Shown piece after piece: positions 22,854-23,125 of a DNA stretch of 48,622 bases (positions are counted from its first letter, which is position 1; each line of letters begins with the position of its first letter). The stretch is from assembly GCA_001821935.1 (NCBI GenBank), contig MHOU01000010.1, positions 45,157 through 93,778 of the forward strand, in the 5' to 3' direction. The translations under genes and the position numbers were made by a program. The DNA comes from Candidatus Staskawiczbacteria bacterium RIFCSPHIGHO2_02_FULL_43_16 (GTDB lineage: Bacteria; Patescibacteriota; Minisyncoccia; Minisyncoccales; Staskawiczbacteraceae). The notes beneath the pieces are model-generated. The model was not told the origin of the DNA. It searched no databases and saw nothing but the letters and a program-made list of their open reading frames with translations.

Positions 22854-23125
22854 GGAGTGTAAGAAAGAATTAAAAACATTTTAGCGGTAGCGGATTCAGG
22901 CAAGATTCAAGGCGCGAGGAACAAATTGAATGCCGGAGGTATTGTTTGTTCCGAAGCAACGATGAAGCTTGCCTGAATCCGCCCGCCCGGAGGGAAGCCA
23001 AAAAATAAATAATTTCTGCGTTATACCTCCTCGGTGTAGCGCATGGGCTATGCCTCGTCGGCAAGCCTTGAAATTATTTCATTTTTTGAGCTTCTAAAAG
23101 TGCTTTTAATTCTTTCTTACACTCC
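22854..23125. mobile_element. MITE-like structured element, copy 1 (~272 bp; 29-bp terminal inverted repeats GGAGTGTAAGAAAGAATTAAAAACATTTT)
   Basis: Near-perfect TIRs. The core is homologous to copy 2 at 23560..23834. Internal 15-bp long-range stem GCGGATTCAGGCAAG/CTTGCCTGAATCCGC. Confidence 0.55.

Follow-up and report, generated by a model that had tools for sequence, protein, structure and literature searches.

Several families of small mobile repeats in bacteria combine terminal inverted repeats with transcripts that fold into hairpins. Correia elements (NEMIS/CREE) of Neisseria are ~100–155 bp long, occur as hundreds of dispersed copies and are often co-transcribed, giving hairpin RNA that is cut by RNase III. 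ERIC/IRU and YPAL repeats of enterobacteria are reportedly imperfect palindromes similar to miniature inverted-repeat transposable elements (MITEs), inserted at TA and found in transcribed regions, with conserved sequence and compensatory changes that are said to reflect selection on the hairpin. Patescibacteria (candidate phyla radiation, CPR) have small genomes that are considered repeat-poor, and we found no paper describing MITEs in CPR. We analysed a 48,622-nt stretch of contig MHOU01000010.1 from Candidatus Staskawiczbacteria bacterium RIFCSPHIGHO2_02_FULL_43_16 (hereafter the window). It contains three copies of a ~270-bp element, two close together near its centre and one within a 16S rRNA gene, and these probably represent an as yet undescribed MITE family, one of non-autonomous DNA transposons, of Patescibacteria/CPR.

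A family of TA-flanked elements

The first-pass annotation of the window had described two folded elements with a common core and differing terminal inverted repeats. Both were borne out when the core similarity was put to an actual pairwise alignment, which gave a mean column identity of 80%. Their locations also held, with the exact ends refined to 22853–23126 for copy 1 and 23563–23831 for copy 2. The terminal inverted repeats do differ as described, being 29 nt (93% complementary) in one copy and 34 nt (91%) in the other, with unlike sequences. A third copy had been missed, and was picked up by a repeat search in which 23691–23738 was 88% complementary to 48325–48372. The copies in the window are as follows.

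22853–23126, + strand: putative MITE, copy 1; profile match 256.7 bits; arms of the terminal stem P1 at ~22854–22882 and 23097–23125
~22884–22986 and ~22993–23094, + strand: hairpin arms P2 and P3, respectively, of copy 1, from fold and alignment
23563–23831, + strand: putative MITE, copy 2; profile match 254.9 bits; TA at 23561–62 and 23832–33
48231–48499, − strand: putative MITE, copy 3; nhmmer match 230.5 bits; inverted with respect to the other two copies and located within the 16S rRNA gene

The copies are colinear over their full length, including the terminal repeats, copy 3 after reverse complementing. The window has exactly two occurrences each of the motifs GGCAAGATTCAAGGCGC and GCAACGATGAAGCTTGCC, compared with chance expectations of 0.23 and 0.02. 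Core identity among the three window copies was 61–72%, compared with 82% between copy 3 and a copy in another Staskawiczbacteria genome. Thus, the window copies represent distinct subfamilies and not recent local duplicates. The ORFs (open reading frames) inside copies 1 and 2 were 41–66 amino acids (aa) long and without match to known protein families, a 77-aa ORF (22670–22903) merely overlapped the left end of copy 1, and the stop-to-stop frames in both copies were all accounted for by the hairpins. The elements therefore lack an ORF, as had been claimed, and the further claim that no transposase is nearby was also correct: the neighbouring genes, encoding an ABC transporter, a sortase, an S11 peptidase, a metallo-beta-lactamase-fold protein and FtsZ, are of housekeeping type.

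In the predicted fold, a ~30-bp terminal stem (P1) encloses the long arms P2 and P3, and a small hairpin, CCC-NNN-GGG, separates them. Folded as RNA and compared with dinucleotide shuffles, copy 1 reached −141.8 kcal/mol (z = −14.05) and copy 2 −141.3 kcal/mol (z = −14.65).

Full-length relatives were identified with an nhmmer profile built from the three window copies, applied to loci fished with the 22-nt junction motif GCCCNNAGGGAANCNAAAAAAT. A scan of one genome per species yielded 62 loci. Full family copies were present in 36 of these, all labelled as Patescibacteria/CPR metagenome-assembled genomes (MAGs), with host labels of Staskawiczbacteria, Saccharibacteria, Berkelbacteria, Falkowbacteria, Harrisonbacteria, Yanofskybacteria and Paceibacter, or unclassified. 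The remaining 26 loci had no family copies; 25 were from non-CPR taxa and one was a Saccharibacteria-labelled locus (L013). With the same motif, family copies were found in 93 of at least 117 metagenome loci, among the matches listed. Viral contigs gave 0 matches, on which basis phage carriage was rejected.

Approximately 130 copies were present overall in the sampled loci, most of them 267–280 bp in length and non-coding, in keeping with MITEs, which are non-coding and shorter than ~600 bp. They are dispersed as multiple copies, with at least 10 near-identical copies having unrelated flanks in one MAG (JAHCSD01, 'Bin_050') and three in the 48.6-kb window, one of them inverted. Most copies sit in intergenic DNA and others in 5' untranslated regions (UTRs), beside or inside tRNA genes and, once, in the tip of a 16S helix. 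Relative to co-directional flanking genes, 15 copies were in sense and 26 in antisense orientation, a difference that was not significant (binomial estimate, two-sided p ~0.1). One contig of the source species (L065) follows the window through copy 1 and then, at 5804–5860, has a different right end (…GTTCTAATATGTACCGTGACTC followed by TA) beside an L33-like gene. This switch would indicate a fourth copy in the source species, or recombination, or a repeat-induced assembly join or break. A MITE family found across lineages would be a marker for horizontal exchange among CPR lineages, and its copies would explain some assembly breaks.

At the left end of the element, TA is followed by R-G-R (RGG), ~5 hypervariable nt, GGAYTCGAAC and GAATCAATTTAGCGG. 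P2 has conserved internal loops rich in purines and a 6–8-bp box that is hypervariable yet keeps its complementarity, the CCC-NNN-GGG mini-hairpin comes next, and the sequence of P3 is largely conserved (GAAGCCAAAAAATGGCTGATTTC / GAAATCATCTCATTTTTTGGCTTC). The right end runs from GGCTTCTAAAG.TGATTC through GTTCGAATCC, ~5 hypervariable nt and C-Y-C to TA. Terminal stems measured 29–35 bp in every full copy and aligned family-wide with the sub-blocks RGG, GGAYTCGAAC and GAATCAATTTAG, so that the family shares its terminal inverted repeats, though overall repeat identity was 35–81%. Solo ends were also present (L028 1735–1769, L024 and L001). As a separate observation, an extra hairpin module of 40–130 nt occupies fixed points of the arms in some copies, in P2 of L052, L001, L032 and L044 and in P3 of L036 and L062 (e.g. 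GAGCCCCGTTAG...CTAACGGGGC), which suggests nested small insertions or modular growth.

Among 74 non-redundant copies, the left flank just before R-G-R had T in 43/68 and A in 41/71, and the right flank after C-Y had T in 35/72 and A in 40/72. TA was found on both sides in many copies, including copy 2; copy 1 has TA on the left, at 22851–52, and AG on the right. When the element was removed in silico from locus L055, a terminator-like hairpin, AAAAAAGCCC-CGTTA-GGGCTTTTTT, was restored. A preference for hairpin loops as targets, hinted at by L055, L050 and L131, was rejected, as flank complementarity was 3.03 against 2.97 in the shuffled control (short flanks were used). The TA flanks fit the TA duplication expected of an IS630/Tc1-mariner-derived MITE. 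Target-site duplication would be the simplest reading of the TA, not a proven one. With a start of GG/GA and flanks of TA or T(T)A, the termini presumably resemble those of IS630/Tc1-mariner or some IS5-group elements, and we take this as a lead to the enzyme type.

Because the repeats are homologous and TA-bounded, and the copies are multiple, dispersed and in both orientations, we regard the element as a mobile DNA repeat. A MITE is its likely identity. A transposase encoded elsewhere would recognise the terminal repeats and insert the element at a TA dinucleotide, with duplication of that TA. The internal hairpins would be kept complementary on both strands by a need for a hairpin or cruciform, whether in DNA or in RNA of either orientation. 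If transcribed, the ~30-bp terminal stem would be a good RNase III substrate, and cutting there would explain the tolerance of an insertion in pre-rRNA.

A number of observations weigh against a MITE. A standard MITE needs nothing but its terminal repeats, yet here these are the most variable part of the element (35–81% identity, against 57–82% for the core), and two internal hairpins covary strongly; something beyond transposase binding is being maintained in it. The invariance of the P2/P3 junction, GCCC..AGGGAA.C.AAAAAAT, was imposed by the fishing pattern, which is not so for the other conserved blocks. An empty site was not recovered. In the source species, every near-identical contig that reached far enough carried copies 1 and 2, relatives at 57–67% protein identity had lost synteny, and an exact-match scan of metagenomes with the reconstructed empty site of copy 2 gave no match. 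The TA may therefore be the last two bases of the repeat and not a duplication. Profile searches with the repeats alone, across ~1.2 Mb of element-bearing loci, found solo ends only and no ORF bounded by family terminal repeats, and hence no autonomous partner of the kind that moves a MITE was found in these loci. There was also no recurrent neighbour protein when 700 ORFs from 128 element-bearing loci were clustered, the largest cluster being a housekeeping one present in 6/128. An IS481-like transposase (Pfam rve/rve_3 and helix-turn-helix domains) was encoded in 5/128 loci (L095, L082, L111, L140 and L188), and in L095 its gene (97–1204) lies 28 nt from an element copy (1232–1391). It was rejected as the partner, as it has no terminal repeat in common with the element.

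IS481 elements are not known to make TA duplications. An inverted pair of copies in L188 did not reveal a partner either, as the ORFs that it flanks look like housekeeping genes (resembling ribosomal protein L19 and an RluA-type pseudouridine synthase) and include no transposase.

Pairing on both strands of the element

The first-pass annotation had reported a compensatory change in the long internal stem, GGATTCAGGCAAG/CTTGCCTGAATCC as against AATTCGGGCAAG/CTTGCCCGAATT, and this was seen both in the sequence and in the alignment of copies 1 and 2. Covariation became much stronger in additional copies, with 57–74 family members. Over 59 consensus pairs in 57 diverse copies, 93.5% of cells were paired, compared with 80.0% in column shuffles. 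Double changes were present in 45/59 pairs and made up 427 cells, against 116 in shuffles, and 0/500 shuffles reached the observed values. When partners were slid by 1–3 columns, pairing fell to 35–55%.

We assessed which strand the pairing serves by folding the alignment on both strands and counting only pairs common to both folds (52 pairs, 74 copies). There were 3514 Watson-Crick, 94 G:T, 86 A:C and 147 other combinations; an earlier set of 31 copies had given 51 G:T and 64 A:C. The fold of each strand taken by itself gained a similar number of extra 'wobble' positions. Selection on RNA from one strand would leave many G:U and almost no A:C pairs. Thus, with G:T and A:C about equal, no single RNA strand appears to be under selection. 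Fold stability was similar in either orientation: the antisense strand of copy 1 reached −128.6 kcal/mol as RNA (z = −11.5), and copy 3 folded equally well on both strands (−124.5 and −120.3 kcal/mol). The symmetric upkeep of the hairpins fits a DNA hairpin or cruciform, folding in either transcript orientation, or homogenisation of the arms, and it does not fit a sense-strand RNA gene. The inference drawn in the first-pass annotation, that selection acts on an RNA or DNA fold and that the element is not a simple decaying MITE, thus stands in part: the fold, its covariation and active maintenance of the hairpins were upheld, whereas a selected RNA in place of a MITE was not.

Nevertheless, a structured non-coding RNA gene, a ribozyme or an intron fragment, in which the core is the functional RNA and the variable terminal stem a mere closing helix, would account for the very stable fold of copies 1 and 2 and for the strong covariation in P1, P2 and parts of P3. 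It would also account for conserved asymmetric internal loops (ATTCAAGGCGCGAGGAGCGA opposite CGACGAGCAACGAAGAAG, and GGCT opposite ATCT in P3) and for the location of all window copies in regions predicted to be transcribed. We consider such a gene very unlikely. Besides the symmetry of G:U and A:C, the ends are homologous and TA-bounded, near-identical copies are many and dispersed, they occur in both orientations relative to neighbouring genes, with one antisense in 16S, and no conserved internal promoter was seen. The first-pass annotation had raised Rfam families as possible relatives; on Rfam 15, the elements had no match at gathering or permissive thresholds, including to group I/II introns and HEARO/omega RNA, and region 22600–23900 gave nothing at E<=10 except tRNA and chance microRNA-type matches. 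A guide-RNA-like link between the hypervariable boxes of P1 and P2, or between the boxes and the flanks, was also considered, and inspection revealed no relation. Covariation without strand bias is a caution for RNA-motif discovery, as compensatory changes alone are no proof of an RNA gene.

The same symmetry could arise in mobile DNA that is moved as folded single-stranded DNA (ssDNA) by a tyrosine (HUH/Y1) transposase or recombinase, as in models of REPIN/RAYT, IS200/IS605 palindrome-associated and integron attC systems, with the hairpins as the recognition signal. Substrates recognised as ssDNA have symmetric hairpins with variable but complementary boxes and conserved bulges, as seen here, and copy 1 folds stably as ssDNA (−85.3 kcal/mol, z = −13.75). 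Paired changes point the same way: copy 1 and a relative in L105 (1529–1805) are identical in the left half of the core, yet six G:C to A:T changes, all of them present in both arms, separate their terminal stems (22853–22884 / 23095–23126), and mismatched intermediates are lacking. However, IS200/IS605-type and REP elements are without long terminal inverted repeats or duplication, whereas this element has TA at both ends; there was no GTAG-type REP signature, and no Y1 transposase was seen in the loci in a search that was not systematic. On balance, movement as ssDNA is quite unlikely.

Copies in tRNA and 16S rRNA genes

A second tRNA-Ile gene is broken, and copy 1 interrupts it where the variable loop meets the T-stem. 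The features of this nested locus, together with a promoter-like site before copy 2, are as follows.

22619–22647, + strand: promoter-like site upstream of the outer tRNA; TTGACT-17-TAAAAT, 10/12 matches, consensus match only
22659–22683, + strand: 5' part (positions 1–26) of the outer tRNA-Ile(GAT), a disrupted gene
22684–22830, + strand: first insertion in the outer tRNA, at position 26/27, a copy of a unit termed 'U'; arms 22684–22740 and 22816–22830
22741–22815, + strand: intact tRNA-Ile(GAT), inside the third hairpin of 'U'
22831–22852, + strand: anticodon arm and variable loop of the outer tRNA-Ile, with copy 1 inserted directly after
23127–23152, + strand: 3' part of the outer tRNA-Ile (T-arm, acceptor 3' strand and CCA), within a 29-nt repeat
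23527–23555, + strand: promoter-like site; TTGCAA-17-TACAAT, consensus match only; ends a few bases before copy 2

The 29-nt repeat, AGGTCCGATTCCTTCTGGACCCACCAAAA, at 23127–23155 is identical to 22790–22818 at the 3' end of the intact tRNA-Ile gene. When 22684–22830 and copy 1 were both removed in silico, ARAGORN called a tRNA-Ile(GAT). Thus, the outer tRNA-Ile gene has been interrupted twice. The inner gene is the only intact tRNA-Ile(GAT) within the window, and the anticodon stems of the outer and inner genes differ by one compensatory change and two wobble changes. This locus illustrates how an essential tRNA can outlast the disruption of its gene if the insertion contains a second copy of it. 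From the site at 22619–22647, a single precursor spanning the inner tRNA and copy 1 would be transcribed. Copy 2 begins a few bases past its own promoter-like site and is therefore probably in the 5' UTR of the metallo-beta-lactamase-fold gene. Judging by these positions and that of copy 3, all three window copies are probably transcribed as parts of host RNAs.

Unit 'U' is itself a ~85-nt repeat, in which an outer 9-bp stem (TATCCCGAT/ATCGGGATA) surrounds three hairpins (−31.8 kcal/mol, z = −6.9). It occurs at 35687–35771 and at 22684–22740 plus 22816–22830, where the loop of the third hairpin is replaced by the complete tRNA-Ile gene, with a weak match in L097 (1165–1240). The ~770 bp that hold the former copy (35466–36232) had no ORF of at least 110 aa, and Rfam gave no convincing match for it, the best (E = 7.5e-4) falling far short of the gathering score.

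Proximity to tRNA genes raises another explanation, that the element is tRNA-derived or is mobilised by a tRNA-targeting integrase. The terminal repeats would then be a tRNA 3' half, comprising T-loop, T-stem and acceptor, in inverted copies, and tRNA genes would be the target. Many right ends, read outward, consist of GGTTCGAATCC plus 5 plus ~7 nt, corresponding to the T-loop, the 3' strand of the T-stem and an acceptor-like stretch. The pattern of variation agrees: tRNAs are variable at the positions of the hypervariable box and conserved, in the T-loop, at those of the conserved box. With a weight matrix of tRNA positions 52–73, ~45% of ends scored above the 99th percentile of the null, always at the same offset; however, the T-loop motif carries most of the weight in this matrix, and the comparison was made post hoc. 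Element copies lie directly next to tRNA genes in L011/L191, L036, L088 and L188 in addition to copy 1 inside one, whereas most copies are away from tRNAs. Furthermore, tRNA-invariant positions (e.g. A58) vary in the repeats, integrase insertion yields direct and not inverted repeats, and no integrase was found nearby. A tRNA origin or target is accordingly highly improbable, and we treat the tRNA likeness of the ends as a possible lead.

Copy 3 lies antisense within the 16S rRNA gene. In the Rfam small-subunit alignment it is a 258-nt insertion at model positions ~80 to 84, in the apical part of helix 6. Placed at a helix tip and closed by a stem of ~29 bp, it has the form of an RNase III-type rRNA intervening sequence. 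A survey of CPR rRNA insertions classified introns and inserts with homing endonucleases, and left short ORF-less non-intron inserts uncharacterised, suggesting the RNase III type for them (Tsurumaki et al. 2024, PMC11270868). Copy 3 belongs to this residue of short inserts. If the family is indeed one of MITEs, at least one such 'uncharacterised' 16S rRNA insertion is identified as a transposon copy and not an intron. An Rfam scan of 40 loci placed the element in rRNA at the 16S locus of the window only, and rRNA targeting as a general rule was rejected on this count.

Two further features of this region were observed. Past the end of the window, the same 16S gene (L124 830–2530) contains an ORF-bearing insert of ~700 nt, as well as a group I intron (60.5 bits); the ORF sequence suggests a LAGLIDADG-type endonuclease. 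Directly upstream of the 16S gene, 47811–48086 is a ~275-nt structured stretch closed by GCACTCATTTTTG/CAAAAATGAGTGC (−115 kcal/mol, z = −5.4). It had no Rfam match, and nhmmer profile searches of the window did not detect it as belonging to the family.

The location of copy 3 bears on whether the element has been selected at the RNA level as a selfish insert or intervening sequence, one that folds in either orientation and so can be cut out of rRNA, tRNA precursors and mRNAs by a host nuclease such as RNase III, which would make insertions harmless. This would be a property added to mobility and not a full alternative to it. If folding were needed in both orientations, pairing should be by Watson-Crick pairs only, with G:T equal to A:C, as observed, and the two strands do fold almost equally well. 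Excision is further favoured by the helix-tip position of copy 3 in a gene with further downstream insertions, by the predicted placement of copy 1 in a tRNA precursor and of copy 2 in a 5' UTR, and by the RNase III-type suggestion of PMC11270868 for short ORF-less CPR rRNA inserts. However, rRNA accounts for one locus only of the 40 Rfam-scanned loci plus the window, and most copies are intergenic. We therefore judge selection for excision to be unlikely. A broader proposal is similarly unlikely: that selection has made the conserved three-helix core fold whichever way it is transcribed, host nucleases thus clearing it from any transcript, with ends taken from tRNA 3' halves, letting the element colonise and persist in essential single-copy 16S rRNA and tRNA genes of genome-reduced CPR and explaining part of the ORF-less CPR rRNA inserts.

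Elsewhere in the window, palindromic intergenic repeats of CCCTAAA/TTTAGGG-like units, telomere-like in appearance, were present at 14169–14257, 15168–15283, 24671–24720, 44762–44783 and 46603–46721. Several flank tRNA-Gln, at gene ends, and they may be terminators or another small repeat family. An 835-aa ORF at 15590–18097 on the + strand had Pfam matches to MVP_shoulder (1.1e-18) and Vault_3, and so resembles major vault protein, here in a CPR bacterium.

Comparison with known mobile repeats and rRNA inserts

REPIN/RAYT systems resemble the CPR element in being non-autonomous hairpin repeats with complementary stems, moved in their case in trans by a single-copy gene. Unlike the CPR element, with three helices and 270 bp, REPINs are inverted pairs of ~25-nt REP sequences that carry a GTAG signature and make no duplication. 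No RAYT gene was seen in the element-bearing loci, and no genome-scale RAYT search was made.

Stowaway and Tourist MITEs and the IS630- or IS5-derived bacterial MITEs RUP and Nezha are closer in their ends, with which the CPR element shares TA (or TWA) termini, a GG/GA start, high folding potential and lack of autonomy. These families are tied to a known transposase through common terminal repeats, whereas no partner was found for the CPR element in the ~1.2 Mb of loci. ERIC/IRU and YPAL resemble the CPR element in lying at TA, in being located in transcribed regions (probably so for the CPR element) and in showing sequence conservation and compensatory hairpin changes; ERIC differs in being 127 bp long, in forming a single hairpin and in its unrelated host range. 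We know of no evidence of ERIC copies in rRNA or tRNA genes.

Correia elements are, like the CPR element, small, ORF-less, dispersed and flanked by TA, with terminal inverted repeats, a likeness of description; none of sequence is expected. The CPR element is longer, at ~270 bp, and has two long arms in addition to the terminal stem. In it, the core is more conserved than the ends, and copies occur in many CPR lineages and not in a single genus. For copy 3, the RNase III-processed rRNA intervening sequences and short CPR rRNA inserts provide the parallel, as copy 3 is a non-intron insert without an ORF that lies at a helix tip and is closed by a long stem. Classical intervening sequences are limited to helices of rRNA, whereas the CPR element is mainly intergenic and dispersed. 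Thus, the closest analogues of the family would be the TA-flanked bacterial MITEs with long-hairpin transcripts (Correia, ERIC/YPAL, RUP and Nezha) and, for the copy in the 16S gene, the RNase III-type rRNA intervening sequence.

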